A stretch of DNA of 64,000 nt, from contig JBGPIA010000004.1 of the NCBI GenBank assembly GCA_041484665.1, positions 64,001-128,000 of the forward strand, in the 5' to 3' direction. A program made the translations under genes and the position numbers. The notes under the pieces were generated by a model. The model had not been told where the DNA came from. It worked only from the letters and a program-made list of their open reading frames with translations, and did no database searches. Source of the stretch: Candidatus Krumholzibacteriia bacterium (GTDB lineage: Bacteria; Krumholzibacteriota; Krumholzibacteriia; JAJRXK01). This document shows positions 43,322-60,257 of this stretch, piece by piece (positions within the stretch are counted from its first letter, which is position 1; each line of letters opens with the position of its first letter).

Positions 43322-43789
43322 ATGACAATCGACGAGCTGATCCGTCACGTGCAGCCGTCCTCCTCCGTGCTCGCGCTGCAGGCACGGGACAAGCAGACAG
43401 TCCTCACCGAGATCACCGACGCCCTCGTCGAGCGCGGTCACGTCAAGGATCGCGATGTCGTGCTGCAGATGCTGCGCAATCGCGAGCAGCTGGGCAGCAC
43501 CGCCGTCGGCGCCGGCGTCGCCTTTCCACACGGCCGCTCCCTCGCCGTCCAGAAGCTGACGATCCTGGTGGCGCGCAGCGCGCAGGGGGTGGACTTCGGC
43601 GGCCTGGACGGGAAACCGACCCGCCTTTTCTTCGTGCTGATGGCACCCCCCCAAGATAGCGGCAATCTCTATCTGCAGGCCCTCGGCAAGCTCACCGAGC
43701 TGGTCGCTCGCGACGACGTGCGCCGGGCCCTGTTGCAGACCGCGGACCTGGACGCGTTGGTTGGCATCTTAAGGGGGGCGGGCAAGTGA
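43322..43789 (+). CDS. PTS EIIA domain protein (PtsN/fructose-mannitol type)
   Basis: REQLGSTAVGAGVAFPHGR with phospho-His, GVDFGGLDGKP. Confidence 0.9.
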   Translation: MTIDELIRHVQPSSSVLALQARDKQTVLTEITDALVERGHVKDRDVVLQMLRNREQLGSTAVGAGVAFPHGRSLAVQKLTILVARSAQGVDFGGLDGKPTRLFFVLMAPPQDSGNLYLQALGKLTELVARDDVRRALLQTADLDALVGILRGAGK

Positions 43790-45064: not shown

Positions 45065-46354
45065 TCAGCGCCGGTCGGGTGGCCCGCCGGTGTCGGCCAA
45101 CGCGCGGGCGTGGGCCATCACGGTGGTGACCTGCTCGACGACCTGGTTGGCCTCGCCGCCGTCGTCGGCGCCCTCGAGGTCCCTCGACTTCTCCTTCTGG
45201 ACGCGCAGCGCCTCGAAATCGGCGATCTCCGCATCGCTCATCCCGCCCGGCTCCTTCTCGAACACGAAATCCTTGCTCTCGTAGTCCACGGTGACGAGGT
45301 CCCCGCGCACGAGCTGGCCGCTGGAGATCAGGTGGCTGATCGGGGTGACCAGCCGGGCCTCCACGGCACGGCGCAGCGGCCGGGCCCCGAATTGCGGATC
45401 GGTCCCGATTCCGACCAGGGCGTCCTTGGCCGCGTGCTCGACGCGCAGCAGGAAGGGCTCCGCGCAGTCGATGCTGCGGATGTGGATGTTGGCGATCAGG
45501 TTGTCGAGGATCTCGTAGAGGTGGGGCTCCTTGAGCGTATCGTAGACGATCATCTCGTCGAAGCGGTTGAGGAACTCGAAGGGGAACACCTTGCGCGCCT
45601 CGCGCAATGCCGACTCGTGGATGTCCTTGTCCAGGCGCTGCCCCTCGAAACCCCCGTGGAAGCCGATGGAGTGGTGGGCGATGTGCGCTCCCATGGCCTC
45701 GCTGCCCACGTTGGTGGTGAGCACGATGATCGAGCGCGTGAAATCGACTTCCTCGTTATTGCCCAGCACGAGGTTGCCGTCCTCCAGGATGCCCAGCAGC
45801 ATGTTCCAGAGCTTGGGGTGGGCCTTCTCGATCTCGTCGAACAGCACGAGCGACAGGTAGGAGTCCTCCTCGGGGAAGATCTTGTTCACCTTGCCCAGCC
45901 CATCGGCGAACATGCCCAACCCTTCCTGATAGGCCTTCTTGTGATGGCGGTCGAGGTTCTCCTGGCACAAGAGCGGCTTGATCTCGCCGCCCACGTAGCC
46001 CGGGGGGCTGCCCAAGAGCTTGCTCATATTGTAGTGCGCGGAGTACTCCTGGCAGTTGACGCGGGTGTAGGCCTTGCGCGACCCGAACAGCGCCTCGGCT
46101 AGGCAGCGCACGGTCTCGGTCTTCCCCACTCCCGTGGGCCCCAGCAGCATCATGGTAAGCAGCGGTCGCTCGGGATCGCTGATGCCCGCGAGCACGCGGC
46201 TGAATGAGTTCGTGACCGTGTCCAGCGCCGTCGGCTGCCCGATGACCATGCGTTGCATGCGCTCGTGGAAGCGAGCGAGCTGCGGGTTGCGCTTCCCCGG
46301 ATCCAGCCGCAGGCGCTTGGCCGGGCTGCTCGGGCAGGGGGCGGGCTGGGTCAT
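45065..46354 (-). CDS. Single-NBD ClpA/B-like AAA+ ATPase (D2 module only)
   Basis: VIGQ, GPTGVGKTE, LLGSPPGYVG pore loop, LFDEIEKAH, TTNVG, EFLNRFD, FGARPLRR; no N-domain or D1. Confidence 0.9.
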   Translation of the reverse strand: MTQPAPCPSSPAKRLRLDPGKRNPQLARFHERMQRMVIGQPTALDTVTNSFSRVLAGISDPERPLLTMMLLGPTGVGKTETVRCLAEALFGSRKAYTRVNCQEYSAHYNMSKLLGSPPGYVGGEIKPLLCQENLDRHHKKAYQEGLGMFADGLGKVNKIFPEEDSYLSLVLFDEIEKAHPKLWNMLLGILEDGNLVLGNNEEVDFTRSIIVLTTNVGSEAMGAHIAHHSIGFHGGFEGQRLDKDIHESALREARKVFPFEFLNRFDEMIVYDTLKEPHLYEILDNLIANIHIRSIDCAEPFLLRVEHAAKDALVGIGTDPQFGARPLRRAVEARLVTPISHLISSGQLVRGDLVTVDYESKDFVFEKEPGGMSDAEIADFEALRVQKEKSRDLEGADDGGEANQVVEQVTTVMAHARALADTGGPPDRR

Positions 46355-46601: not shown

Positions 46602-48425
46602 CTACTGGGGCTCCCAGCCCTCCAAGTACGGCGCGCGAGGACCGCCTGGACGCTCGATCCAGCGGTCGTCGACGGCGGGCGCGATGGGAGAATGCCGTTG
46701 CAAGTAGCGCGTGAGCGCGTCGCGCACGGGCATCATCGTGTACTCGATGCGGTCGGGGGGCACTTGCGCCAGGAAGTCCAGGCCGCTGTTGCCTTCCATC
46801 AGGTAGTCGGTGGTGGCCACCCGATAGATGTGGTCCGGTTGGACCGACAGGCCGCCCACGGTCAGCGCCAACACGCGCTGCCCTGCCGCGGCGTCGGGGT
46901 CGACCACCACGTTCGCGCCGCTCTGGCAGATTCCCGCCGACCCGCGCCCGCTCTTGCGTTCGAGGATCTGGCGCAGCAGCCGGCCGTCCATCTGGACGAC
47001 CACCAGTGCATTGCCGAAGGGCTCCACCCGCAGCATGTCCCCGGAGGTGAGCGGCCCGGCCGGGAGGTCGGTACGCAGTCCTCCGTTGTTGGTGAAGGCG
47101 AAGTCGGCGGAAGCGCCCTCCCGCATGGCGTCCGTGACGAAATTGCCCATCGGGCTGTTGGCGCCACCGCGGCGCGTGAGTTCCACGCGGCTGCGGCCCA
47201 GGCGCACCGACAGACCCGCCGCGACCTTCTGGATGTACGGGCGGAGGCTGTCGGTCATGGCGTGGCTGGGCCACCACTCGTCCTCGAAGAGCGTCACCAG
47301 CACACCGTCGCGCCGCGGGCTCTCGTAGCGCAGCGGGAGCCCCGTCGCGCGATCGATGGTCAGGATCGCGTGGCCCACCGACGAGCCGTTGCCGAACGAC
47401 TCGAAGACCATGGCGTGGGTGACCGGGTCGATCCAGGGCTCGCGGTAGCCGCGGTGGGTGTGTCCGCCCACGACCAAGGGGACGCCCTCGAGCACGTGGA
47501 CCAGGTCCATAGCCCCGCGCACGTCGGCGCGGATGTCCTCGCCGGCGGCAACGCGCTTCTGCAGATTCGCCCATTCTTCCTGCGGGTCGAAGGGCAGCCC
47601 CTCGTGCACCACCAAGACGATGATGTCGGCGTGCTGCTGCTGCTTCAGATCATCGCGGTACTTCTCGATGGCCGGCAGCAGTGCCCCGAAGGCCAGCCCC
47701 TTGATGTTCTCCTCGAACGCCATCTGCGCCGTCCCCGGGGTGACCGCCCCGATGATCCCGATGCGCAGCCCGGCGCGCTCAACGACACGGCAAGGCTCCA
47801 CCCAATCCACCAAGGAGTCGGTCCCCTGCTTGAACAAGTTGCAACAGAGGAACTTCTGGTGCATGCCGTGCGAGATGCGGATGGCCACATCCTTGCCGCG
47901 GTCGAACTCGTGATTGCCGGGAGCGACGGCGTCGTAGCGCATCGTGTTGAAGTAGGTCTCCATCACGCTGCCCTCGGTCAGCGTCCCCACCGGCGCTCCC
48001 TGCCAGACGTCGCCCGCGTCCACGAGCACCATCGCCTCGTCGGGCTTGCCGGCAATCTGCTCGCGCAGCTTCTGGACGTAGGCCATCGCCGAAGCGCCTC
48101 CGCCCAGGGGCGGCGGGAAGTTGGGGTTCATGAAGTTCGCGCCCTCGGGCGCCACGTGGCCGTGGATGTCGTTGGTCCACACCAGGTGGATGCGCGCGAC
48201 GCCCGTGCTGGCCGCGTCGCCCATGGGCGGCGCGACGGCGCAGAGCGCCAGGACCGCTGCCGCCGCGAGTGCGCCGGCGGCACGACGGGCCACTCGACGC
48301 GCGGTCTGGTGGGCGGTGGCGCTCGCAGTGACGCGCGCGCTGACGCGGCCGGCGTGGCGCCGGCCCTCAAGTGCGGCACGAGCGAGCAGATCGGCCGCGC
48401 TAGGCCGTCGCGCTGGGCCGGTCAC
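46602..48425 (-). CDS. Exported 5'-nucleotidase / UDP-sugar hydrolase (metallophosphoesterase plus 5'-nucleotidase C domain)
   Basis: WTNDIHGH, DAGDVWQG, PGNHEFD, VVHEG, GGHTH, NFVTDAMR, TNNGGLR, PFGN; signal peptide; start GTG 48425 (GTGA overlap) or 48293. Confidence 0.92.
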   Translation of the reverse strand: MTGPARRPSAADLLARAALEGRRHAGRVSARVTASATAHQTARRVARRAAGALAAAAVLALCAVAPPMGDAASTGVARIHLVWTNDIHGHVAPEGANFMNPNFPPPLGGGASAMAYVQKLREQIAGKPDEAMVLVDAGDVWQGAPVGTLTEGSVMETYFNTMRYDAVAPGNHEFDRGKDVAIRISHGMHQKFLCCNLFKQGTDSLVDWVEPCRVVERAGLRIGIIGAVTPGTAQMAFEENIKGLAFGALLPAIEKYRDDLKQQQHADIIVLVVHEGLPFDPQEEWANLQKRVAAGEDIRADVRGAMDLVHVLEGVPLVVGGHTHRGYREPWIDPVTHAMVFESFGNGSSVGHAILTIDRATGLPLRYESPRRDGVLVTLFEDEWWPSHAMTDSLRPYIQKVAAGLSVRLGRSRVELTRRGGANSPMGNFVTDAMREGASADFAFTNNGGLRTDLPAGPLTSGDMLRVEPFGNALVVVQMDGRLLRQILERKSGRGSAGICQSGANVVVDPDAAAGQRVLALTVGGLSVQPDHIYRVATTDYLMEGNSGLDFLAQVPPDRIEYTMMPVRDALTRYLQRHSPIAPAVDDRWIERPGGPRAPYLEGWEPQ

Positions 48426-49852
48426 TGGTCGGAGGAATCGCATGCCTGCTCCTGGTGGCCGAGGGCGGTGGACTGGGTGGCGAGCTCGATGCGCACTTCG
48501 TAGCTGCGACCGTCGGTGGCGAAGGTGACGTTGTGCTGGGCGCCGCTGCCGCGGAGGCGGTCGAGCGTGGGCAGGTCGTCGATGGCGTAGACGTGAGCGC
48601 CAATGGCCTGCAGGCGCGCGGTCGCCGCCGACAGCGCGTCCGTCAAATCGCCGTCCCAGACCTGCTGGGTGTTGGGAATGAACGCCACGCGGGGCCGCAG
48701 GGCGTTGATCCACGCTGCGCTGTTGGCGTCGTGCAGGCCGTGGTGCTGGGCCTTGTAGAACTCCACCTCCAGCTGCGCCGCGGGAAAGGCAGCCAGGATG
48801 CTGGCGGTGCTCTGGTCCTCGCAATCGCCGCCCATCATGAAATGGACGTCGCCGTAGGTGAAGCGCAGGACGATCGACTCGTTGTTGATGTCGGTGCCCT
48901 CGTAGCCGGTGAGTCCCACGTCGGGGGCGCGGCTGCTGTTGAGCACCGTGACGTCCACCTGCGGATCGAAGGCCAGCGCGGGGTTGCTGGCCGAAGTGTC
49001 GAAGCGGTACACGACCACGTGGGTTGTGCTGGGGTGGCCTGCCAGGTCGGCCAGGGCCTCGCGGTAGGCGGGCTTGTCGAAGGACTTGGTCGGCGAGTCC
49101 AGAAACACGTCGGGGGGCCGCGAGTCCAGCACCGCGAGGGTGTCCGCCGAGCCGACCATTCCACCGATGTGGTCCAGATGGACGTGGGTCGCGACCATGA
49201 CATCGATCCTGCTGACCCCGTGGGCATCCAGGTACTCGCTCACCGCCCGCGCACCGCTGCGCGGCCCGGCGTCGATCAGTACGTGCTCGCCGCTGGTGGG
49301 CATGGTGAGCAGATGGCTGTCGCCAAAGCCGATGTGGATCATCGTGGCGGTCAGGATTCCCGTCGGCGCCGCGATGGCGGCGGTGAAGGTGTCCACGGAC
49401 GTCGCCGCCACGCTGCCGTTGGTGGCTTCCGAGACCGCCTGCACCCAGACGAGCCGTCCGCGGGTCAGGTCCAACAGCGGCACCGAATGATCGAGCGCGT
49501 ACTGGCGATCGGCCCGCCCGGCCGCCACCGGATACGCCGCGTGATCGAAGCGGCCCACGGCGAATCCGTAGCGCACCCAGCCGCGCGCCGGGACCTCGGT
49601 GCGCCAGCGCACGAGGTTGCCTTGGACCGTGAGGCCGCTGATGCCGATGGGAGCGACCGGACCGTCGCCGCCGCTCTTGCCCGAGCAGCCCAGCTGCGCA
49701 GAGAGCGACAGCAGCAGGATTGCCGCCAGCGCCAGGCGCGCGCCAGCGTGGCAGGCGCCAGCGTGGCAGGCGCCCGCGCCGCGCACGCGGCGGCCTCGCC
49801 GGGTCCGGCCGTGGCCGTGATCGGGACGCGGGCCGTTGGCCCATGCGTACAT
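48422..49852 (-). CDS. Lipoprotein: FN3-like domain plus ComEC/Rec2-type metallo-beta-lactamase domain (putative nuclease)
   Basis: Lipobox QLGC; HIGFGDS, LIDAG, THVHLDHIGG (HxHxDH), INNESIV, GGDCE, KAQHHG; no Competence TM domain; AGGAGG RBS. Confidence 0.85.
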   Translation of the reverse strand: MYAWANGPRPDHGHGRTRRGRRVRGAGACHAGACHAGARLALAAILLLSLSAQLGCSGKSGGDGPVAPIGISGLTVQGNLVRWRTEVPARGWVRYGFAVGRFDHAAYPVAAGRADRQYALDHSVPLLDLTRGRLVWVQAVSEATNGSVAATSVDTFTAAIAAPTGILTATMIHIGFGDSHLLTMPTSGEHVLIDAGPRSGARAVSEYLDAHGVSRIDVMVATHVHLDHIGGMVGSADTLAVLDSRPPDVFLDSPTKSFDKPAYREALADLAGHPSTTHVVVYRFDTSASNPALAFDPQVDVTVLNSSRAPDVGLTGYEGTDINNESIVLRFTYGDVHFMMGGDCEDQSTASILAAFPAAQLEVEFYKAQHHGLHDANSAAWINALRPRVAFIPNTQQVWDGDLTDALSAATARLQAIGAHVYAIDDLPTLDRLRGSGAQHNVTFATDGRSYEVRIELATQSTALGHQEQACDSSDQ

Positions 49853-49881
49853 CGAGAGGTCCCCTCCTGGGAGAGGCTGCG

Positions 49882-51258
49882 CTAGAAGCCGCGCGAGATC
49901 CCGACGACCATGCGGACGACGCTGTCGTCGACCTTGGCATCGTACGCAGGCGCCGGGAAGGTGTCCCCGCCGACGGTGGTGGTCGGGTCGAACAGGATGC
50001 CCAGCGGCTGGCGGCTGGTCTGGCGCTGGAACTGCCCCGTCACGTCCATCATGAAGCCCGCCACCGGCACCCCGAAGCCCGCCGAGAAGATCGACCGGGA
50101 CGACTCGCGATCGCTGTAGTTCTCAAGATAGCGAAACCCGGCCCGCAACGGTGTGCCGTTGTAGAAGATGTGCTCCACGCCCATGCGGACGTCCCAGGTG
50201 TCGCGGAAGTCGGGGGTCGCCGGCAGGCTCACGAGCGCCCGCCGGTAGTTCGTCGCCACCGCCGACCAGAATCGCCGCACCGCCTCTACGGTGAACACCG
50301 TGCGCAGCTCGTTGCGCGGCCGGTAGGCCACTCCCAGGCGCAGCGTGCCCGGGTACTCCAGCTCCACATCGGGGACGCTGGCGTGGGTGACGCTCGTACC
50401 CGAGCTGCGCACGCTGGTCGTGTCGGTGGCCAGCGTACCCTTGACGCTGAAGCGGTGCTCGTAGTCGATGCCCAGGTCCAGGCGGTCATTCACCCGCATC
50501 AGCCCGCCCAGGGAGACCCCCCAGCCGGCCAGGTCGTGCTTCAGGCTCTGGACCGAGTCGGGGGGCGCGTGGAAGCCGGCGATACGGCGATCCTGCTCGA
50601 TGGTCCCGAAGTAGCGGTGGACCGAGAGTCCCACGTGCGCGCCCGCCCCCAGCTCCGCCCCGTAGCCGCCGGTGAGCGAGAGCAGCCGGCCGCGTACCTG
50701 CAGCTGCCGCAGGTCCTGGATGGTGTCGCGGATCTGGGAGAAGGGGCTGGGGTCCCGGAACTCCTCGAAGTAGTCGTAGTCGAAATCGAAACGCTGGAAG
50801 AGGCCCAGGCCCACGGCCATGGCCCGCCGGTGCGGGATGCGGTAGACGACGCCTCCCTGGGCGTCGGTGTAGCTGTGGCTGTTGATCGCGATCGCGCTCT
50901 CGGTCGCGAAGCTCTGGAAACTGTCGTACAGCGGCACGAAGCGGTTCTCGCTCGCGTGCCAGAGGCCCAGCACCAGGTCGGCCCGCACGGTCGAGTCGGT
51001 GAGCGCCAGCGCCGCCGGATTCTGCACCAGGGCGGCACTGCCCTGGAAGACCGCGACGCCGGCCCCCCCCATTGCCCCCGAGCGCGCAGTGAAGCCGTCG
51101 ACGGGCGTCCCGTTGGGCACGTCTAGCAGGGTGGTGCAGCGTGCGGGGGCCGGCAGCAAGGCCGCCGGGACGGCCCAAAGGAGGGCCGACCACAGCACGG
51201 CGCAGCGTTGCGGCGCCGGCCGGATGAGGCAGCAGATTCGCGATGGGACACTCATCAC
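49882..51258 (-). CDS. Outer-membrane beta-barrel, FadL/OmpP1-like
   Basis: Signal peptide, ARSGAMGGAG...NPAALA N-terminal motif, alternating beta strands, C-terminal Phe. Confidence 0.75.
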   Translation of the reverse strand: MMSVPSRICCLIRPAPQRCAVLWSALLWAVPAALLPAPARCTTLLDVPNGTPVDGFTARSGAMGGAGVAVFQGSAALVQNPAALALTDSTVRADLVLGLWHASENRFVPLYDSFQSFATESAIAINSHSYTDAQGGVVYRIPHRRAMAVGLGLFQRFDFDYDYFEEFRDPSPFSQIRDTIQDLRQLQVRGRLLSLTGGYGAELGAGAHVGLSVHRYFGTIEQDRRIAGFHAPPDSVQSLKHDLAGWGVSLGGLMRVNDRLDLGIDYEHRFSVKGTLATDTTSVRSSGTSVTHASVPDVELEYPGTLRLGVAYRPRNELRTVFTVEAVRRFWSAVATNYRRALVSLPATPDFRDTWDVRMGVEHIFYNGTPLRAGFRYLENYSDRESSRSIFSAGFGVPVAGFMMDVTGQFQRQTSRQPLGILFDPTTTVGGDTFPAPAYDAKVDDSVVRMVVGISRGF

Positions 51259-51266
51259 GGACTCCC

Positions 51267-53909
51267 CTAGAAGGTGTAATCCAGCTGGAGGCGGAAGGCG
51301 GTGCTCTCGCGGCGGGCATTGTCGCCGTCGATGGGCGAGCCGGACGGATCGTTGAAGCTGCGGATATCGACGTTGGTCTGCGTCAGCCGGCGGTCGTTGG
51401 TGACCTTGAAACGCAACAGCAGCGAGTCGCTCAAGCGGCTGCGCAGCAGGATCCAGTTGCGGAAGCCCTTGCCGTCCACCACCACGAACTCGTTGTCCTC
51501 GAAGTTGAACAGGAACCCATCGTACATCTCGGTGCTGATGGCCACCGTCAGCCCATCGTTCACATTGTGGGTGAGCAGGGCCTGGACCGCCTGCCCGGGG
51601 CTCGCGGCCTGGGCCAGCGGGTTGTTCTGGCTGATCTGGGCCGCTTGCGACAGGCGCGCGCGCGGCGCGAACTGCGTGTTCGTGGAGCTGTAGAGCAGGC
51701 CCAGCTCGTCATAGTCGCTGAGGCGCAGCCGCATCTCCAGGCGGGTGTCCCAGCTCTTGAACTTGCGAAAGTCCTCAGTGCCCATCTCGCTGCGGCTGGA
51801 GAAGCGCTCGCGCAGGCGGAAGCGTACCGGGAAGATGGGTGCGTACTCCAGGCGCGCGGTCCAGCGCCGCTGGTCCTGCTCGTCGGCCACCCGCTTCCAC
51901 TGGTCGTACTCCAGGCCGGAGATGGTGAGCTTGCGCGAGACGCGGTAGCGCGTGGAGAGGAAAAGCCCGCGCTCTGGCTTCATCTGGGGTGTGTCCAGCT
52001 CCAGCCAGGTCAGCACGGGGTTCTGCAGGCGGAAGGGATCGGTGAGCAGCGTCTGCTCGTAGCGCGTGTCGTTGGAGAAGGAGCGGGCGTACGGGTTGTC
52101 GAAGCCCAGGTCGATGGAGCGATACAGCGCCTGGAGCGTGAGATCCTCGTACTGCACCCAGCCGTTGAGCACGAAGGCGTCGGGGGCGGCGCTGAACAGG
52201 CCCTGCAGCCCGCTGTCGGGGCTGCTGTCCAGCTTGGCGTACTCCCCCTGCAGCGCGGCGTTGGCGTAGACGGTCTGGAATTCCGCGCCCACCACGCGGC
52301 GGAACTTGCCCAGGCGCCGGCTGTCGTAGTCGGCGAACAGCTCGCTGTCACGGCTGTCGAGCAGATCGCGGTTGGCGGGAGCGATGAGCGAGTTCACGTC
52401 GGGATTGAAGTGCTTGTCGTAGCGCGCCTCGTACCCGCTGACACCCACGTAGCTCCCGTTGGTGAGCTGCAGCTTGAGGTTGCCGCCATAGACCGTCTCG
52501 TGGAATGCGTCGCGCCGCAGCAGCAGGGGCGTCCCCTCGGCGGTCTGCAGGCCGGCCAGCTCCTCCTCGGTGAGGCGCGGGAGCATGACCACGTACTTGT
52601 TGACCGTGCCGTCGGGATTGAGCAGGCCGTCCTTGTGCCCGTTGCTGTAGAAAGCGACGCCGTGCAAAGGCCCGGCCGAGCCCTCCGCAGCGATTCCCTG
52701 GAGGGCGAACTCGTGGGAGCGGGACAGGTCGCCCAAGAGCGTCTGCGGTCGCTTGTTGAATCCGGTTCCCGTCTTGCGCGGCAGGAAGTAGTCGGTGTTG
52801 TCCATCACCAGGCCCTGCCCGAAGGCGATGCGGTAGTTGCCGACGACCAGGTTCTCCAGCGCCAGCTTGCCGTTCATCTGCGGCTTCCACGAGACGTAGC
52901 CTTTCGCGGTCTCGTTGAGGTGCTCCTCGCCCACGTTGCGGAAGGTCATCAGACCGCCCTTGAGCTCGTTGCCCAGGCGCAGGCGAAGCTTCGTCAGCAG
53001 ACCCGGGTTGGCGTTGTCCAACCCCCGCACGCCCCAAGCGGTGGCGTGCTCGAAGTCCAGGGGGTCAACCCCGGGCTGGGGCTCCACCAGCAGATCCGCG
53101 TCGTCGAGCGTGTAGGGCGTGTCGAAGTACAGAAGCTGCGCGTCACCGCGCAACTCGTCTGCCTTGCGCTGGGGGGGCTGGTAGGTGACGAAGTCGCGCA
53201 GATTGCGGAAGGCGAAGTAGCTGAGCCCGTCGGCGCCGCGCAGCTGGCGCTCGTTCTCGATGCGGCCCGCCAGCTTGCGCGCCTTCAGGATCGCCACGGC
53301 GTCCACCGGCGAGACGTTCTGGAAGGTCTGCAGCTCGTAGAGATTGAGCGTGTTGACATCCTGGGGATCGCGCAGCTGGTCGAGGTACTCCTCGGCCAGC
53401 TCCTCGCTCGCCCCCTCCTGGGCGAGGAACTGCTGGACCTGCCGGAAGCTCGCGTCGTAGCGCTGGAGCGCCTCGTCCTTTGGATCGGGCGGCAGCGTCG
53501 CCACCAGCGGCCACAGCTTGGCCAACAGCTCGGTGGTCACGCCCTCCACCTCGAGCAGGTCCTGCATCGAGCGGAAGAAGCGCACGTACGTGCGGTAGGA
53601 CCAGAGGTTCTGCGCAACCAGCGCCGGCACGGGCAGCTGCTGCAGCTCCTCGAGGGTGGCCCGGTTGACGTCCAGGCGCCCGCGCAGCAGCGCCGCGTTG
53701 GGCTGCTGCGCGCCCACGCGCGGCGAGATCTCGGTGCGCCGCTGCGTCTCCTCCGGCGACTGGGCCCATGCCGGCGCTGCGCGGGCCAGCATGGCCCCGG
53801 TCACTGCGGCGATCAGCGCGGCGGCTCGCACGGCGGCCGGCAGCGTGGCTCGCAGCCCGACCGGCCGCGCGGTCGCGACCGCGGCGCGGATCGCCCCGCG
53901 CACGCTCAC
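51267..53909 (-). CDS. ComEA-type helix-hairpin-helix domains fused to a large outer-membrane beta-barrel
   Basis: Signal peptide; LDVNRATLEELQQLP...FRSMQDLLEVEGV and DVNTLNLYELQTFQNV...ERQL HhH units; VGNYRIAFGQGLV; beta-signal FRLQLDYTF. Confidence 0.85.
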   Translation of the reverse strand: MSVRGAIRAAVATARPVGLRATLPAAVRAAALIAAVTGAMLARAAPAWAQSPEETQRRTEISPRVGAQQPNAALLRGRLDVNRATLEELQQLPVPALVAQNLWSYRTYVRFFRSMQDLLEVEGVTTELLAKLWPLVATLPPDPKDEALQRYDASFRQVQQFLAQEGASEELAEEYLDQLRDPQDVNTLNLYELQTFQNVSPVDAVAILKARKLAGRIENERQLRGADGLSYFAFRNLRDFVTYQPPQRKADELRGDAQLLYFDTPYTLDDADLLVEPQPGVDPLDFEHATAWGVRGLDNANPGLLTKLRLRLGNELKGGLMTFRNVGEEHLNETAKGYVSWKPQMNGKLALENLVVGNYRIAFGQGLVMDNTDYFLPRKTGTGFNKRPQTLLGDLSRSHEFALQGIAAEGSAGPLHGVAFYSNGHKDGLLNPDGTVNKYVVMLPRLTEEELAGLQTAEGTPLLLRRDAFHETVYGGNLKLQLTNGSYVGVSGYEARYDKHFNPDVNSLIAPANRDLLDSRDSELFADYDSRRLGKFRRVVGAEFQTVYANAALQGEYAKLDSSPDSGLQGLFSAAPDAFVLNGWVQYEDLTLQALYRSIDLGFDNPYARSFSNDTRYEQTLLTDPFRLQNPVLTWLELDTPQMKPERGLFLSTRYRVSRKLTISGLEYDQWKRVADEQDQRRWTARLEYAPIFPVRFRLRERFSSRSEMGTEDFRKFKSWDTRLEMRLRLSDYDELGLLYSSTNTQFAPRARLSQAAQISQNNPLAQAASPGQAVQALLTHNVNDGLTVAISTEMYDGFLFNFEDNEFVVVDGKGFRNWILLRSRLSDSLLLRFKVTNDRRLTQTNVDIRSFNDPSGSPIDGDNARRESTAFRLQLDYTF

Positions 53910-54841
53910 GGCGCCTCCTCACCCGTGGGCTTGGGGCCCAAGCGCAGGCTCAGGCCCACCTGGTGGCTGCTGTCCAGCACGCCGCCTCCGGTGGAGAAGC
54001 CGTAGTCGAGGGTGACTACCGGCAGATGGATAGCGAAGCCGCCGGTGAGCTTGTTGGGGTCGGTCTCGATCCCCGCTCGCAGGGACAATGCGCTGGTAAT
54101 CCCCATCTCGAGGCCGCCGTGGAAGCGGAAGTCCTGCCCCATCTGTCCGCGCAGGTCGAAGGTCGTGAGCACGTCTTCGTAGGGCTCGTAGCACAGACCC
54201 ACGGCGATCTGCTGGCGCAGCTCCTCGTCGTCCTCGCCGATGGTCGGGTTGTTGAGATTGCGGGTCAGGAAGCCCACGCGCGTACGGTCGTAGACCGTCA
54301 CCATGGCGCCGATGTCCAGGCCCATCGCCCAGTCGCTGCCCGGATCGATGCCCCCGACCGACTGCGCAAATTCCAGGTTGTAGAAGTTGAGCGTCCAGCC
54401 CACCTGCGCCGAGGTGGAGGCGTCACGGAACAGCCGAAAGCCATGCGAGAGCGAGAACGTCTGCTCGGTGGTCAGGCGCACCTCGTCGCCGCCCGCGCCG
54501 TACTTGACGCCGAACCAGCGGTAGCCGAAGGCCACGCCGCCGGCATTACCCGGCAGGCGGGTGGCGGCGCCAAAGGACGTCAGGCGGTTGAAGGCAGTCC
54601 CGTTGGGCTGGACGGTGGCCGTGGCGACCGAGGGCTGCGCGAGCCTGGGCAGACCGGCGGGATTGTAGTAGAAGTCCCACGCGTCATCGGCCACGGCCGT
54701 GCTGGCCTCCCCCATGGCCCGGGCGCGGGGGCTGACGGCCAGGTCTTCGAACGCCGCGCGCGCCCCCGCTGGCAGCAGTAGCGCGCCCGAGACGGTGGCG
54801 GCCAGCAGCAACGCAATTTGACAACGACCCTGTTGCATCAC
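53906..54841 (-). CDS. PorV/PorQ/PorP-like outer-membrane barrel (T9SS shuttle-like)
   Basis: Signal peptide ARA-AF, ARAMGEA...FYYNPAGL, NLNNP, LRAG, LDYGF, SHQVGLSL; about 310 aa. Confidence 0.75.
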   Translation of the reverse strand: MMQQGRCQIALLLAATVSGALLLPAGARAAFEDLAVSPRARAMGEASTAVADDAWDFYYNPAGLPRLAQPSVATATVQPNGTAFNRLTSFGAATRLPGNAGGVAFGYRWFGVKYGAGGDEVRLTTEQTFSLSHGFRLFRDASTSAQVGWTLNFYNLEFAQSVGGIDPGSDWAMGLDIGAMVTVYDRTRVGFLTRNLNNPTIGEDDEELRQQIAVGLCYEPYEDVLTTFDLRGQMGQDFRFHGGLEMGITSALSLRAGIETDPNKLTGGFAIHLPVVTLDYGFSTGGGVLDSSHQVGLSLRLGPKPTGEEAP

Positions 54842-54851
54842 CGAGAGCCTC

Positions 54852-57800
54852 CTAGCGTTGCAGCCGCGTGGCGACGACCACCGGCATCTGCATCGTCTGG
54901 ATCCTGCCCGTCGTCCGGTCGCTCACCAGCAGGTGGACCACGTAGGCGCCGGCCTCCACGATCTGCACCGTGTCGTCGCGGCCATCCCAGCTCACCGTGG
55001 CGCGGTTGTTGGTGAAGACGGCCGAAGGGTCGCTGAATCGGCTGTCGTAGAGCGTCTTGCGCAAACGGCCGGTGAGATCGAAGACGCGCAGCAAGACATC
55101 GGATCCCCGCTGCACGACCGTCGCGGGAACGGTGAAGGTGATCGGGTACGCTTCGCCCTCTCGCGGCAGGAATGTCTTGGGCGGGCCGACCAGCGTCACG
55201 AAGTCGATGAGCCCCTCCTCCACCGGGCGCACCACGCCGGGGGCTGCGATGGCGTTGCCCGTCGGGTCCGCCACGCCCGCCACGCGCACCGACCAGCCCT
55301 GCGCGACGGCCAGTTCGGCGGCCAGGCCCAGCACGACTTGGGTCGCGTCCTGACCCGCGCGGGCCGACTGGACCGCCACCGTCTCCGTAGGGACCTGGGT
55401 GCGGTAGACCGTGTAGTGCGCCACGTCCGCGATGGTGGCCGGATCGAGCGCCTCGTTGAACTTCAAGGTGAGCTCGGTTCGCCCCGTGAGGCTGGCGCGC
55501 AGCAGGGTCGGCGGAATGTCGTCGGGCGGCGGCTGATCGGTGATCTCCTCGCGCACACCCACGAGCACCTGGAAATCGCTCTGGAACTGGCTGCCCGCGC
55601 CCGAGGCCCAGATGGTGTTGCCGACGTTGAAGGCCGCTGCGCCCAGCGCGGTGACGACGCGCACGACGATGGGCCCGCTGCCGTCATTGACCGTGTAGTT
55701 GCTCGCCTCGTTGGCAGCGCCGGGGTTGGTGACGCTCTTGGCTACGATCTGCCCGGTGACGCGGATGTAGGTGCCCTCCCACGCGTGGCTCGCGGCGGTG
55801 CCGGTGCTCAGCGGCGTCGGCTTGAGCGGCGTGTTGCCGCCGCTGACCAGCGTCACCTCCGTAATGCCGGTGATCTCGATGGTGGTGAAAAAGGTGTCGA
55901 CCGTCCCCTTCACCAGCACGATGTTTCCTCGGTCCCGCAGGAGCGGGCTGCCGGCCGAGCTGCCGAACAGGTTGACTCCGCGACCCGAGTCATCCTGGAT
56001 GTATCCGGAGGTGGTCGACCCCCGATAGTTGTTCGGGATGTAGACCTGACCCTGGATTGTGACGGCCTGCCCCTTGTAGGTGTGCAGATTGTTGTGGATC
56101 GCAGCGATCGGGATGGCCCCCGACGCCGTGTGCGTGAAGGTGGCCGTGTCGCCGGACCCGGCCACGATGGCATTACCGGCCAGGTCCTGTAGGCCGTGCA
56201 CGCGCACCGTGTAGCCGACGTTCTCGGCGAGGCTGCCGCCCAGGGTCAGAGTGACGCTGATCCCGGATCCGAGGCTGGCCGCGCTCACCGGCACGGTGCT
56301 CGTCGGCTGAACCGTGCGGAAGACCTCGTAATTGGCGGCCAGGTTGGCGGTGGCGCCGGTCACGGCCTCGCTGAAACTCACCAGCACCTGCGAAGCGCTG
56401 GACGCCGCGGCGCTGGTCACAGTTGGGGGCGTGGTGTCGCCGCCGCTGGTGGTCTCGGCGATGTCGCCCACGACCCCCACCAAGACCTGGAAGTCGGTCT
56501 GGAACTGGGCGCCCGCGCCGGCTGCCCGGATCGTCTGTCCGACGTTGAATGCAGGCGCGCCCAGGGCGGTCACCACCCGCACGAGGACGTTTCCGCTGCC
56601 GTCGTTGACCGTATAGTTCGTCGCCTCGTTCGCGGCTCCCGGATTGGTGACGGCCTTGGCCGTGATGGGACCGGTGACGTTGATGTAGGTCCCTTCGTAG
56701 CTCGTGCTGCGCGCGGCTCCCGTGCTCAGGGCCAGGGGCGTCAACGGCACGTTGCCGCCGCTGACCAGCGAGATCTGCGTGAGCGTGACGACCTCGATCG
56801 TCGTGAAGAACGTGTCGACGGTCCCTGTCACCAGCACCACGTTGCCGCGGTTCTGCAGCTGCGGATCGTTGCTCGTGCTGCCGAACAGATTGATCCCCCG
56901 CCCCGAGCCGTCCTGGATGTAGCCCGAGTAGGTCGTGCTGCCGCGATAGTTGCTCGGAATGTAGACCTGCCCCTGGATCGTGACGACCTGCCCCTTGTAG
57001 GTGCGCAGGTTATTCTGGATCGTGGCGATGGGGATGGCGTTGCTAGGTGTGTACGTGAAGGTGGCGCTGTCCCCGGCGCCCGCGGCGACGGCGTTGCCGG
57101 CGAGGTCCTGCACGTTGCTGACACGCACGGTGTGGCCGACGCCAGCCGGGAGCGCGCTGCCCAGGGTCAGGGTCGCAGTGAGCCCGTCCCCCGAAAGGCT
57201 CGCCGCGGTGACCGTCACGGTGTTCGCTGGCGTGGCGGTCTGGAAGACCTGGTAGTTGGCCGCCACCTGGCCCGTGGCAAGCGTGACCGCCTCGCTGAAG
57301 TGCACGACCGCCTGCGTCGCGCTGCTGGCCGAGGCGCTCGTCACGGTCGGAGGCGTGGTGTCCCCCCCGCTCGCCAGGGCGATGTCAAAAGAGTTCCCCA
57401 CCAGGATCTGGTAGTCGGTCTGGAACTGCGCGCCCGCGCCGGCCGCCCGGATCGTCTGTCCGACGTTGAACGCCGGCGCACCGAGCGCGGTGACCACGCG
57501 CACCACGATGTTTCCACTCCCGTCGCTCACCGTGTAGTTGGTCGCCTCGTTCGCAGCGCCCGGGTTGGTGACCGCCTTGGCGCTGATGGTCCCGGACACC
57601 TGGATGTAGGTCCCCTCGTAGCTGTGGCTGGCTGCGGCGCCGGTGCCCAGTTGCACGGGCGTCAACGGTGCGTTCCCCCCGCTGACCAGCGAGATCTGCG
57701 TCAGCGTGACGACCTCGATCGTCGTGAAGAACGTGTCGACGGTCCCTGTCACCAGCACCACGTTGCCGCGGTTCTGCAGCTGCGGATCGTTGGTCGTGCT

Positions 57801-58385
57801 GCCGAACAGATTGATCCCCCGCCCCGAGCCATCCTGGATGTAGCCCGAGTAGGTCGTGCCGCCGCGATAGTTGCTCGGAATGTAGACCTGGCCCTGGATC
57901 GTGACGACCTGCCCCTTGTAGGTGCGCAGATTGTTCTGGATCGTGGCGATCGGGGTGGCGCTCGGTCCGCTGCTGAGCGTGAAGGTCACCGTGCTGCCGG
58001 CCGCGATGGGGTTGCCCTGCAGGTCCTCCACGTTCTGCACGCGCACGGTGTAGCCCGTGCTGCTGGCCAGGTCGCTGCCCAGCGTGAGCGTGGCCACGGC
58101 TGCGTTCACCGAGGCGGCGCTCACCACGACCGTGCTGGCCGGGGTCGCAGTCTCGAAGATCTGGTAGTTCGAGGCAGTACCGCCCGTGAATGGGTCGACC
58201 GACTTGGAGAACGTCACCCGCACGGTGCGCGCGTCGGGCGCCGTGGCGCTCACCAGCGCGGGTGCCTGCGCCCAGACCGCCGGGGGGTCGGCCACCAAGA
58301 GCGCCACGGCGCACAGCAGCAGGAGAGCGGAGAGCGGGCGGGCGATCCGGGGAAACCCGTGGGAGAGAGCACGACGGCTGCGCAA
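54852..58385 (-). CDS. Large secreted protein: 4 Ig-like (Big_5/SbsA-type) domains alternating with 3 tandem OB-fold pairs, FlgD-Ig/T9SS-like C-terminal domain
   Basis: TTG start 8 nt after AAGGAG; signal peptide; DTTPPTV...FSEAV...V.DLAGN Ig units; YKGQVVTIQGQV..YIQDGSG and YEGTYI..YTVNDGSG OB units; tail RVFDLTGR...WDGRD...AGAY. Confidence 0.85.
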   Translation of the reverse strand: MRSRRALSHGFPRIARPLSALLLLCAVALLVADPPAVWAQAPALVSATAPDARTVRVTFSKSVDPFTGGTASNYQIFETATPASTVVVSAASVNAAVATLTLGSDLASSTGYTVRVQNVEDLQGNPIAAGSTVTFTLSSGPSATPIATIQNNLRTYKGQVVTIQGQVYIPSNYRGGTTYSGYIQDGSGRGINLFGSTTNDPQLQNRGNVVLVTGTVDTFFTTIEVVTLTQISLVSGGNAPLTPVQLGTGAAASHSYEGTYIQVSGTISAKAVTNPGAANEATNYTVSDGSGNIVVRVVTALGAPAFNVGQTIRAAGAGAQFQTDYQILVGNSFDIALASGGDTTPPTVTSASASSATQAVVHFSEAVTLATGQVAANYQVFQTATPANTVTVTAASLSGDGLTATLTLGSALPAGVGHTVRVSNVQDLAGNAVAAGAGDSATFTYTPSNAIPIATIQNNLRTYKGQVVTIQGQVYIPSNYRGSTTYSGYIQDGSGRGINLFGSTSNDPQLQNRGNVVLVTGTVDTFFTTIEVVTLTQISLVSGGNVPLTPLALSTGAARSTSYEGTYINVTGPITAKAVTNPGAANEATNYTVNDGSGNVLVRVVTALGAPAFNVGQTIRAAGAGAQFQTDFQVLVGVVGDIAETTSGGDTTPPTVTSAAASSASQVLVSFSEAVTGATANLAANYEVFRTVQPTSTVPVSAASLGSGISVTLTLGGSLAENVGYTVRVHGLQDLAGNAIVAGSGDTATFTHTASGAIPIAAIHNNLHTYKGQAVTIQGQVYIPNNYRGSTTSGYIQDDSGRGVNLFGSSAGSPLLRDRGNIVLVKGTVDTFFTTIEITGITEVTLVSGGNTPLKPTPLSTGTAASHAWEGTYIRVTGQIVAKSVTNPGAANEASNYTVNDGSGPIVVRVVTALGAAAFNVGNTIWASGAGSQFQSDFQVLVGVREEITDQPPPDDIPPTLLRASLTGRTELTLKFNEALDPATIADVAHYTVYRTQVPTETVAVQSARAGQDATQVVLGLAAELAVAQGWSVRVAGVADPTGNAIAAPGVVRPVEEGLIDFVTLVGPPKTFLPREGEAYPITFTVPATVVQRGSDVLLRVFDLTGRLRKTLYDSRFSDPSAVFTNNRATVSWDGRDDTVQIVEAGAYVVHLLVSDRTTGRIQTMQMPVVVATRLQR
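56761..57950. repeat. Intragenic direct repeat, 269 nt x2 (56761-57029 and 57682-57950), third diverged copy near 55843-56110
   Basis: Seven mismatches in 269 nt counted by eye; offset 921 nt (307 codons). Confidence 0.9.
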
Positions 58386-58654: not shown

Positions 58655-59137
58655 TTAGAAGTGCTTCGCCTCTTCGGCCATCAGGGCGTCGAGGATCCGG
58701 GCGGGCGTCGTCGCGCACCGGACCGCTTTCAAGAACGACTCCATGCGGGCCAGGCGCGAGATGCGCGCGAGCACGCGCAACTGCTGACCGGGCTGGTCCT
58801 TCTGGCCGGCCAACAGGAAGACCAGGTCGACCGGCTCGCCGTCGACGGCGTTGAAGGGGATGGGGCGGGTCAGGCGCGCGATCACCACCAAGCTGCCCAC
58901 GACCGCCTCACTGCGGGCGTGCGGGATGGCGATCCCTCCGCCGATCCCCGTGCTCTCCACCCGCTCGCGAGCGAGCAGGTCGGCCAGCAGCCGCTCCCCA
59001 TCCACGACCTTGCCCAATTCGACCAGACGTCCCACCAGGGAGCGGAGGCACTCCTCGCTGGTTGCGACCGACAGATCGGCGATGACCGTCTCCGGCGACA
59101 CGTAGTTGATGAGCTTCATCGTAGTCTCGTCCGCCAT
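58655..59137 (-). CDS. PTS EIIA domain protein (second copy)
   Basis: RERVESTGIGGGIAIPHAR, FNAVDGEPVDLVFLL; start 59137 or 59119. Confidence 0.9.
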   Translation of the reverse strand: MADETTMKLINYVSPETVIADLSVATSEECLRSLVGRLVELGKVVDGERLLADLLARERVESTGIGGGIAIPHARSEAVVGSLVVIARLTRPIPFNAVDGEPVDLVFLLAGQKDQPGQQLRVLARISRLARMESFLKAVRCATTPARILDALMAEEAKHF

Positions 59138-59180
59138 GGGCGCCCGCGCCGTTGCGCGCCCCAACCAGGAACTCCTGGCA

Positions 59181-60257
59181 CTATCTGGGCGTGGCACCAT
59201 CGTCCTTCGCTTTCAAGAACCGTTCCACGCTGTCGGCGACCTCCGCGAACGCCCGGGCGGAGGCGCTGGCGGGGTGGGCCACGACGACAGGACGGCCGGC
59301 ATCCCCACACTCGCGGACGACCGTCTCGATGGGAACGGCCCCCAGGAAGGGGACGCCGTAACGGTCGCTGGTGCGCTTGCCACCGCCTTTGCCGAAGATC
59401 TCGGTCTCGTTCCCGCAGTGGGAGCAGACGAAGCCGCTCATGTTCTCCACCACACCGATGATCGGAGCGCGGGTCTCCTCGAACATCTGGATGCCGCGCA
59501 CGACATCGATCAGCGCCACGTCCTGGGGGGTGGTGACCATGACCACTCCCGACAGGGGCACCTTCTGCACCAGCGTCAACTGCGCGTCGCCGGTCCCCGG
59601 CGGCAGGTCCACGACCAGAATGTCGAGCTCGCCCCACAGTACGTCGCCAAGGAACTGCGAGACGGCCGCCATGACCATCGGCCCGCGCCAGATCATGGCC
59701 TTCTCCTGGGGAACCAGGAAGCCGATGGACATGTTCCGCACGCCGTGTTTGTCGATGGGGATGATCTTGCGCTCGGCGGTGATCGTGGGCTGCTCATCGA
59801 TGCCCATCATGGTGGGCAGGCTGGGACCGTAGATATCGGCATCCATCAACCCCACCTTCAGCCCCTTGCGCGCCAGCGCGAGCGCCAGGTTGGTCGCCAC
59901 CGTGGACTTGCCCACGCCGCCCTTCGCGCTGGCGACCGCGACGCAGTGGCGGATGCCCGGCAGCATCTGGCGGCCGGACAGCGGATCGGGGGATTTCTGA
60001 GGCGCCTGCTCCTTGCGCCGCAGCTCGAGGCCGACTCGTCCCACGCCGGGCAGGGCGCGTAGCGCAGCCTCGGCGGCGGCGCGGATCTGCTCGACGGACG
60101 CCGGCTCTGCAATGGTGTGCTCGATCACGACGGCGACGTCACGGCCAGTGACCGTAACCTGCCGCACGAGGCCGAACGAGACGATGTCCCGGGAGAACCC
60201 CGGGTACTTCACCGTCCGCAGCGCCTGCTGCACCTGATCCTCGGAGATGTCGGGCAT
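59181..60257 (-). CDS. mrp: Mrp/ApbC (NBP35) Fe-S cluster carrier ATPase
   Basis: SAKGGVGKST, DADIYGPS, WRGPM, DLPPGTGD, ENMSGFVCSHC; AAGGAGG RBS. Confidence 0.95.
   Translation of the reverse strand: MPDISEDQVQQALRTVKYPGFSRDIVSFGLVRQVTVTGRDVAVVIEHTIAEPASVEQIRAAAEAALRALPGVGRVGLELRRKEQAPQKSPDPLSGRQMLPGIRHCVAVASAKGGVGKSTVATNLALALARKGLKVGLMDADIYGPSLPTMMGIDEQPTITAERKIIPIDKHGVRNMSIGFLVPQEKAMIWRGPMVMAAVSQFLGDVLWGELDILVVDLPPGTGDAQLTLVQKVPLSGVVMVTTPQDVALIDVVRGIQMFEETRAPIIGVVENMSGFVCSHCGNETEIFGKGGGKRTSDRYGVPFLGAVPIETVVRECGDAGRPVVVAHPASASARAFAEVADSVERFLKAKDDGATPR

Follow-up and report, generated by a model that had tools for sequence, protein, structure and literature searches.

A six-gene DNA-utilisation locus, ddbABCDEF, has been characterised in Bacteroides thetaiotaomicron (10.1101/2025.03.18.642099 / PMC12478041), and related transformation genes, RA0C_RS04915/04920, are known from Riemerella (PMC8459023). 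Loci for the degradation of extracellular DNA in Izemoplasmatales, Shewanella, and Lutibacter bring together a nuclease, an LTD/nucleic-acid-binding protein, and a nucleotidase for DNA foraging (PMC8289736). For protein display, the type IX secretion literature describes type-B CTD proteins with cognate PorP/SprF partners, namely the pairs SprB-SprF and PG1035-PorP (PMC9143113, PMC12618676). Here we describe an operon that shares features with each of these systems. In the window (the 64,000-nt stretch of DNA analysed, to which all coordinates refer), six open reading frames, g1 to g6, lie on the minus strand (46602..58385) with junction gaps from g1 to g6 of 10, -4, 8, 29, and -4 nt, in agreement with the positions and tight co-directional spacing reported in a first-pass annotation. 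Its domain calls for g1 to g6 also stood up to profile searches and structure models, and its view that all six products are exported is matched by plausible signal peptides in 6/6 proteins, as assessed by eye. Promoter and terminator scans of the operon region gave chance-level matches only, an Rfam search of the region gave no match, and the operon has no TonB/ExbBD gene.

We consider it somewhat more probable than otherwise that the operon is a nucleic-acid or nucleotide utilisation locus of FCB-related uncultured bacteria, functionally akin to ddbABCDEF, from which it would differ in its pore and its T9SS-type display. The statement in the first-pass annotation that no characterised system has this composition is true of the composition, although ddbABCDEF is a characterised DNA-utilisation locus of six genes with another transporter. 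In both, six exported genes encode a transporter of the outer membrane (a putative one here), a surface protein of OB type, and nucleases that vary. However, DdbC is of the TonB-dependent type, while the putative transporter here is a 24-strand HhH-barrel (g3) without a TonB-receptor or plug match; g1 is a CTD-bearing multi-domain protein rather than a lipoprotein lid, and resembles p204 HIN where DdbD/DUF5689 resembles p202 HIN; and two FadL-family barrels and a predicted 5'-nucleotidase are added. The operon likewise shares a ComEA-fold (HhH)2 (in g3) and a ComEC-type MBL nuclease domain (in g5) with ComEA/ComEC (PMC9747964, PMC12455585), but in g3 the HhH is fused to an outer-membrane barrel and is without the hairpin glycines and key Lys of ComEA (PMC9747964), and the g5 MBL is a free lipoprotein without the channel or OB domain of ComEC (PMC12455585). 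The DNA-degradation loci differ in relying on ABC transporters or unlinked genes, and the accessible part of that paper describes no such barrel (PMC8289736). A literature search, with subscription papers and supplements outside its scope, found no paper on a g3-type barrel or on the operon.

The synteny survey covered 80 genome loci (close relatives) and 80 metagenome loci (distant relatives), with counts taken from loci that had enough contig. A core of five genes was conserved, encoding the CTD surface protein (g1), the PorV/PorP-like barrel (g2), the HhH-barrel (g3), the FadL-like barrel (g4), and the 5'-nucleotidase (g6). Core order was kept at genome loci with room for g2 (80/80), g1 (72/72), g4 (73/73), and g6 (63/64), and equally at distant loci with room (72/72, 62/62, 77/77, and 71/71, respectively); this gene order is far above chance expectation. 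The g5-type MBL gene was found at 14/64 genome loci and 0/80 distant loci, and is an accessory gene outside the conserved unit. The non-synteny that the first-pass annotation had named as counting against its reading was not observed. Synteny extended to the five-gene core but not to the optional MBL gene, and the six-gene composition is not the conserved unit. The operon occurred in 64/68 genomes of one large family, look-alikes were found in Fidelibacterota and Cloacimonadota, and the core order is common to several uncultured bacterial groups. A plasmid search with one distant homologue gave no match. A weak match in G038 was dismissed as spurious. In G031, g5 and g6 were present with no g3 match, but a run of N lies directly upstream, and this genome was therefore left out of the argument. 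Among the 80 distant loci, 37 carried a fusion of the 5'-nucleotidase to an EEP domain, 34 a separate EEP gene, and 8 an Endonuclease I gene; the unrelated nuclease-family genes in or beside the operon occupy different clades of the g3 tree. Within the sequence covered, which is incomplete at some loci, no nuclease was present at 72/104 non-redundant loci.

The first gene, g1 (54852..58385, minus strand; 1177 aa), encodes a signal peptide, four Big_5 Ig domains alternating with three tandem-OB repeats, and a C-terminal sorting domain; in most relatives the N-terminal part consists of Lamin Tail Domains (LTD). By repeat detection, the first two repeats span about residues 143-336 (57378..57959, minus strand) and 450-645 (56451..57038, minus strand), and the third, at about residues 758-950 (55536..56114, minus strand), was modelled as two OB folds with Z scores of 10-11.6 to aminoacyl-tRNA synthetase anticodon OB, RPA, PolC, MCM, and p204 HIN-dsDNA structures. 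The top Atlas look-alike cluster of repeat 1 has DUF5689 in 13% of its members, and g1 had no match to PF18942 at E<1. As modelled, the tandem OB resembles RPA and p204 HIN and, weakly, DdbD. The repeats are neutral to acidic rather than basic, with net charges of -1, -1, and -2 here and -2 to -19 in 25 relatives. Three further tail-bearing proteins of the same genome carry comparable OB/LTD modules, and a domain search found no nuclease domain in them.

The claimed link to T9SS display is supported by an SprA-like translocon gene, with PF14349 over its cut-off in a 2506-aa frame of this genome and a counterpart in 37/41 genomes searched. As in type-B pairs, a CTD surface protein is followed by a PorV/PorP-superfamily barrel. 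However, the g1 tail (54855..55199, minus strand) matched neither the type-B profiles TIGR04131/PF13585 nor the type-A profiles TIGR04183/PF18962; it is homologous to the FlgD-Ig/type-A-like tails of this genome (E about 1e-10) but has diverged from them, lacking their PNPFNP motif, carrying TFxPxxGE, and ending in VVVAxRL, and it matches the C-terminal regions of PorU and PorZ structurally. A second CTD protein of the distant loci passes PF18962. By profile matches, g2 (53906..54841, minus strand; 311 aa) belongs to the PorV/PorP/PorQ superfamily, but it falls under every family cut-off (47 bits against 90 for NF033709, PorV/PorQ-like); in its family, 102/103 members match NF033709 and 21 match TIGR03519. 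The pair also differs from type-B pairs in its fixed association with a large barrel and a nucleotidase. In this genome, which is 94% complete, PorK did not pass its cut-off (TIGR03525 for PorK/GldK reached at best 51 bits against 350). A shuttle-like barrel gene lies directly downstream of the CTD gene in 72/72 genome and 62/62 distant loci with room, and g2 is likely the cognate shuttle or anchor of g1.

g5 (48422..49852, minus strand; 476 aa) is a predicted lipoprotein (lipobox-like QLGC, by eye) with a ComEC/Pce-type MBL domain and, in a Pfam search, no PF03772 membrane channel domain. Its metal ligands (HxHxDH, GD, HHG) are kept in 92/93 homologues and correspond to HxH/DxDH, the downstream Asp, and HHG in an alignment to 9ic4, which by sequence upholds the earlier call of a nuclease-type MBL. 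ComEC nuclease domains give 5'-phosphate products (PMC12455585), the predicted substrate of g6. The g6 gene (46602..48425, minus strand) encodes a UshA/CD73-type 5'-nucleotidase of up to 607 aa, with metallophosphoesterase metal motifs intact in this genome and a PF02872 C-domain; a ribosome-binding site could not be seen, which leaves the start of the gene uncertain. The terminal nucleotidase activity read by the first-pass annotation is not invariant, as the nucleotidase domain is degenerate in 34/34 full-length EEP fusions. g4 (49882..51258, minus strand; 458 aa) is a FadL/TodX/BamG-family barrel by profile match (PF03349, 36 bits, cut-off 29.7), and is homologous to g2 (profile probability 98%).

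The same genes could instead serve organophosphate scavenging or envelope remodelling, a reading that we hold to be fairly unlikely; the substrates would then be phosphodiesters other than DNA/RNA, for example phospholipid head groups, phosphocholine, teichoic-type polymers, NAD, or nucleotide sugars. MBL, EEP, and calcineurin-like domains are general phosphoesterases, most MBL, EEP, and 5'-nucleotidase families also work on non-nucleic phosphoesters, and LTD reputedly accompanies such hydrolases generally, by its Pfam description. The FadL family of g4 comprises channels for hydrophobic compounds, the ComEC substrate Ser after HHG is Ser in 2/92 g5 homologues and Leu/Val/His/Arg in 90/92, and the ComEC domain has its nearest structural relative in Pce (PMC12455585). 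The best solved relatives of the g5 MBL itself are nonetheless ComEC nuclease domains (E 1.5e-17), with Pce/CbpE far behind (E 0.43-0.96), the g1 OB pairs match nucleic-acid-binding OB folds, and the Endonuclease I of the eight distant loci belongs to a dedicated DNase family.

The large barrel g3 (51267..53909, minus strand; 880 aa) combines two ComEA-shaped (HhH)2 domains and an acidic helical linker with an outer-membrane barrel of 24 strands that ends in Phe (g3 model, pLDDT 86, pTM 0.84). Two HHH_3 matches were obtained (54 bits). HhH domain 1 (model residues 29-92; 53493..53684, minus strand) has the ComEA fold (Z 12.0, rmsd 1.2 over 64 aligned residues to 8dss) with degenerate hairpins and a median net charge of -4, against +7 for the genome's own ComEA. 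In alignment, the HhH domains are without the GhG hairpins and the DNA-contacting Lys of ComEA (Bs K164, K193): at the K164/K166 place, all 107 sequences have V/L/I/M in domain 1 and Asp in domain 2, and 45/49 distant sequences also have this Asp. Here it is Asp156 of HhH domain 2, a domain that covers model residues 136-197 (53178..53363, minus strand). By sequence, these degenerate, acidic domains do not look capable of conventional DNA binding, and the earlier claim that they bind DNA is not supported.

The barrel had no sequence match to a solved structure, and fold searches returned generic barrels only, which does not in itself prove a new fold. It matches none of the TonB-receptor, plug, and carboxypeptidase-regulatory Pfam families, which a real TonB receptor of this genome does match, and it models as an undescribed 24-strand type. 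Five lumen-side arginines form a ladder on strand 17 (model residues 648-659; 51792..51827, minus strand), conserved at 94-100% in 107 sequences and R/K in 32-46 of 49 distant g3; the lumen side averages 29.7 K/R against 16.9 D/E, as counted for g3 alone. The ladder would suit any polyanion, as organophosphate scavenging would have it. Alternatively, g3 may be a protein-handling platform. As a channel or scaffold resembling an usher or SprA, it would join g2 and g4 in exporting or displaying g1 and in tethering g6, while the enzymes act outside and small products pass general porins. PapC and FimD, ushers of 24 strands, are indeed the best fold matches (Z 13.2, rmsd 5-6 A, 9-10% identity), large barrels that handle proteins have FadL-family partners in PorV and BamG, the HhH domains do not look like DNA binders and weakly match a GspK domain (E 0.0012), the EEP fusions keep a dead phosphoesterase domain as a docking module would be kept, and a Bacteroidota look-alike of 632 aa is without the HhH Pfam. 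Yet other porins match at Z 12-13, so the usher match shows barrel size only, SprA is already in the genome, and the conserved ladder suggests an anionic ligand, small or polymeric; we regard this platform as unlikely. A third account is very unlikely. In it, the core would gate DNA at the outer membrane and feed ComEC in natural transformation, much as the DdbC/DdbD-like system of Riemerella does, and the nucleotidase would salvage the strand that is degraded. In its favour, ComEC occurs in 40/41 genomes searched, ddb-type loci serve both transformation and nutrition in Bacteroidota, the K199-equivalent is K/R in HhH domains 1 (95/107) and 2 (107/107), and the genome's own ComEA and Thermus ComEA also carry Leu at the K164 place. 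Against it, ComEC is equally frequent where g3 was not found, no competence gene lies in the core of any examined locus, and extra nucleases would destroy donor DNA. Outside the operon, this genome moreover encodes two secretins, a complete ComEC that includes an MBL domain, and a stand-alone ComEA next to pilB/pilT/pilC-like genes. The placement of these genes agrees with the earlier preference for nutrition over transformation.

Nucleic-acid utilisation is favoured by the conserved core order, the unrelated nuclease families in different g3-tree clades, the g5 motifs and closeness to ComEC, the OB pairs and their DUF5689 cluster, the K/R-rich lumen with its ladder, and the SprA-like gene and NupC-family carrier in the genome. 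It is weakened by the degenerate acidic HhH, the non-basic OB repeats, the OB/LTD modules in nuclease-free proteins, the many loci without a nuclease, the dead nucleotidase in EEP fusions, and the lack of TonB/ExbBD in the operon. A DeoC match (57 bits) was dropped as evidence, as it may be another aldolase. Mechanistically, and by analogy with type-B CTD/shuttle pairs of the T9SS, the SprA-like translocon would export g1 and g2 would retain it at the surface. There the OB or LTD modules of g1, recognised by fold, may gather DNA/RNA or enzymes acting on it. An interchangeable phosphodiesterase, judged by family, would then cut the polymer: the ComEC-type MBL g5 here, EEP or Endonuclease I elsewhere, or an enzyme encoded outside the operon. 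Anionic fragments could cross the outer membrane via the arginine-lined g3 barrel, and its HhH domains and acidic linker would sooner serve for gating or docking in the periplasm than as a ComEA-type DNA ratchet. Periplasmic g6 would, as its family suggests, strip the 5' phosphate, nucleosides and phosphate would enter by ordinary carriers, and g4 may serve to anchor g6 or to let small products through.

In seawater and sediments, extracellular DNA makes up a major pool of phosphorus, nitrogen, and carbon. More tentatively, and with doubts prevailing, g3 might be the first of a novel class of nucleic-acid channels in the outer membrane: a 24-strand Arg-ladder barrel that works without TonB and is gated by repurposed, substrate-mimicking acidic ComEA-fold domains. 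It would form one complex with g1-g2, acting as an OB/LTD catcher displayed by the T9SS, and with g4 and the N-domain of g6, acting as an enzyme dock that takes lineage-specific nucleases. If true, g3 would add to pili and SusC-like DdbC a third way for DNA to pass the outer membrane. The operon also offers expressible targets, including a barrel family without a solved structure, a display pair of T9SS type from outside Bacteroidota, and a nucleotidase domain retained after catalysis was lost.

Domain searches further identified a single ClpB-D2-like AAA+ gene 247 nt downstream of the operon (45065..46354, minus strand). It adjoins the operon in 52/58 close loci but in 0/80 distant loci, which speaks against a seventh member, and it is probably a lineage-level neighbour rather than part of the unit.

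We found six minus-strand open reading frames in the window with gaps of 10, -4, 8, 29 and -4 nt, confirming the layout of the first-pass annotation: g1 (54852-58385, a surface protein with a C-terminal tail, CTD), g2 (53906-54841, a PorV/PorP-like barrel), g3 (51267-53909, an HhH-barrel), g4 (49882-51258, a FadL-like barrel), g5 (48422-49852, a ComEC-type MBL lipoprotein) and g6 (46602-48425, a 5'-nucleotidase). Purine-rich ribosome-binding sites precede g1 to g5; none is visible upstream of g6, so its start is uncertain. Pfam and NCBIfam backed the domain calls, with the two small barrels mostly below family cut-offs, and signal peptides were assessed by eye. Judging from gene order, folds and motifs, we lean towards a locus that displays a catcher on the surface, with nucleic acid cut by an exchangeable enzyme, anionic fragments crossing through g3 and dephosphorylation following in the periplasm.

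Among the matches listed, the closest named relatives (g3 identity 56-61%) carry the label Ca. Krumholzibacteriota, and those further out are assigned to Eisenbacteria, Latescibacterota and bins with varied labels. After one weak match was discarded as spurious, g3 was present in 17 of 41 class genomes; in a 151-genome sample, whose tally includes weak HhH-only matches, it was matched in 64/68 genomes of one family and 0/53 of five others. Synteny was assessed in two similarity-ranked sets with near-duplicates included, one of genome loci (best 80 of 214) and one of metagenome loci retrieved with a distant alignment (best 80 of 348); denominators count loci whose contig left room for the gene. 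The genome loci contained g2 (80/80), a g1-type tail gene (72/72), g4 (73/73), g6 (63/64) and g5 (14/64), and the distant loci (GC 31-58%) contained g2 (72/72), the tail gene (62/62; a tandem pair in 39/39), g4 (77/77), g6 (71/71) and g5 (0/80). The conserved unit therefore comprises five genes with g5 as an accessory, and the proposed six-gene synteny stands for g1-g4 and g6 and fails for g5.

The ComEC-type assignment of g5 was upheld: ComEC nuclease domains are nearest (E 1.5e-17), Pce is far off, and metal ligands occur in 92/93 homologues; the ComEC-type substrate Ser is rare (2/92). The available text of PMC12455585 describes ComEC domain products with 5'-phosphate ends, which would suit a 5'-nucleotidase, and the g6 motifs are intact in the source genome. 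Across the best 80 of 348 distant loci, an EEP domain replaces the g6 C-domain in 37/80, a separate EEP gene occurs in 34/80 and an Endonuclease I gene in 8/80. Phosphoesterase motifs are degenerate in 34/34 full-length 5'-nucleotidase-EEP fusions, and EEP motifs are retained in 5/5 EEP domains inspected. Fusions of this kind (37 metagenome loci within L151-L200, e.g., L169:13757-15679) pair an intact EEP domain with an N-domain that lacks its metal ligands and is possibly a docking module; a second EEP lipoprotein gene usually comes next. Since MBL, EEP fusion and separate 485-aa EEP sit in different clades of the g3 tree, nuclease-family genes have been acquired repeatedly; in 72/104 non-redundant loci none was found within the stretch of DNA covered. 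Wider organophosphate scavenging, a rival reading of the locus, appears unlikely.

In the g3 model (pLDDT 86, pTM 0.84), two helical HhH domains precede 24 strands joined by long loops and short turns in alternation, which would place the N-terminal domains in the periplasm. Fold searches with the model hit ushers, porins and TonB receptors (identity 8-13%) and gave no clear relative. The acidic linker may sit in the lumen, since several alignments begin at model residues 103-113 and pair them with in-pore segments from VDAC or from the plugs of receptors. For the g3 family alone, the lumen side averages 29.7 K/R vs 16.9 D/E; five strand 17 arginines are 94-100% conserved in 107 sequences, their positions being R/K in 32-46 of 49 distant sequences. 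Another barrel, g4, belongs to the FadL/TodX/BamG family, with conserved loop motifs.

Nucleic acid binding by the g3 HhH domains, as first proposed, fared poorly against ComEA alignments and the mutational data in the available text of PMC9747964. GhG hairpins are present in neither domain, the place of B. subtilis ComEA K164 is hydrophobic in domain 1 (107/107), itself acidic, and Asp in domain 2 (107/107; 45/49 distant), and that of K193 is mostly Glu or aromatic. Because the K199 place is retained and K164 is also absent from the source genome's own ComEA and Thermus ComEA, we call DNA binding by these domains no more than unlikely.

In g1, four Big_5 domains are interleaved with three repeats; a model (pLDDT 89) covering the third repeat together with the Ig domain and tail gives two OB folds per repeat. 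Their best fold matches are anticodon-binding, RPA, PolC, MCM and Stn1 OB domains (Z 10-11.6, rmsd ~2-2.7 Å), with p204 HIN-dsDNA also among them. DUF5689, the DdbD family, occurs in 13% of members of the top Atlas cluster, and g1 itself has zero DUF5689 matches by Pfam. Counting against DNA binding are the neutral to acidic charge of the repeats and three unlinked, secreted proteins of the source genome with ordinary tails and Lamin Tail Domain (LTD)/OB/Ig modules (L201:7677-10691, L212:6871-9102, L213:5776-7674), in which no nuclease or other catalytic domain was found. LTDs replace the OB/Ig part in 61/80 genome loci (best 80 of 214), and distant orthologues hold both together.

The suggestion of a T9SS-like tail on g1 survives in part: it is a divergent relative of the FlgD-Ig/type-A-like tails (~180 profile matches across all contigs of the genome), but falls short of both the type A and the type B CTD models. 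g2 falls in the PorV/PorP/PorQ superfamily (NF033709 matched by 102/103 family members), and the g1-g2 order is that of type-B CTD/shuttle pairs, a tail gene then a PorV/PorP-type barrel in the available text of PMC9143113 and PMC12618676; by analogy, we infer that g2 may display g1. A SprA-like gene occurs in the source genome and in 37/41 genomes, PorK gave no match over cut-off in the source genome, and that genome seems to have a much used, possibly minimal T9SS outside Bacteroidota. Other PorV-like barrels of this genome adjoin large tail-bearing proteins (L204:5921-12746, L203:6076-13949), with ExbB/ExbD-like genes and, at L204, a TonB-dependent receptor, which suggests a lineage-wide layout of transporter, displayed protein and PorV-like anchor. 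A protein export or display platform, another reading of the locus, is in our view distinctly unlikely.

Nutrition is favored over transformation, as the first-pass annotation had argued, because other parts of the genome encode two secretins, a ComEC that includes an MBL domain and a separate ComEA adjoining pilB/pilT/pilC-like genes, ComEC occurs in 40/41 genomes whether or not g3 is present, and the source genome has a NupC-family carrier; the two could also operate together. The operon uses ComEA and ComEC folds, yet is not competence machinery, the comparison covering competence papers on P. gingivalis and Riemerella (available text of PMC11532111 and PMC8459023), and a competence gate is improbable. 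From its genes, the operon seems functionally similar to ddbABCDEF, the DNA-utilisation locus of Bacteroides thetaiotaomicron (10.1101/2025.03.18.642099, available text), but the transporters are unrelated and it is therefore not a member. No description of a g3-type barrel was found in the literature searched, which included the available text of PMC8289736 on extracellular-DNA degradation loci; the operon is real and deeply conserved, and it is apparently undescribed.

Two plus-strand PTS EIIA-like genes, recognized by eye, flank the region (43322-43789 and 58655-59200), the latter with zero Pfam or NCBIfam matches. A stand-alone Clp-like gene (45065-46354), whose sole AAA+ module corresponds to the second one of ClpB/ClpA, lies 3' of the operon in 52/58 close loci (best 80 of 214) and in 0/80 distant loci (best 80 of 348). 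Frameshifts in g3 and g4 at L035 (G006:C5:119483-121918) may be sequencing error or decay. Loci L170 (4674-5030), L187, L189 and L198 carry an extra 118-123 aa gene between the tail gene and g2, presumably resembling a four-helix-bundle intervening-sequence protein.
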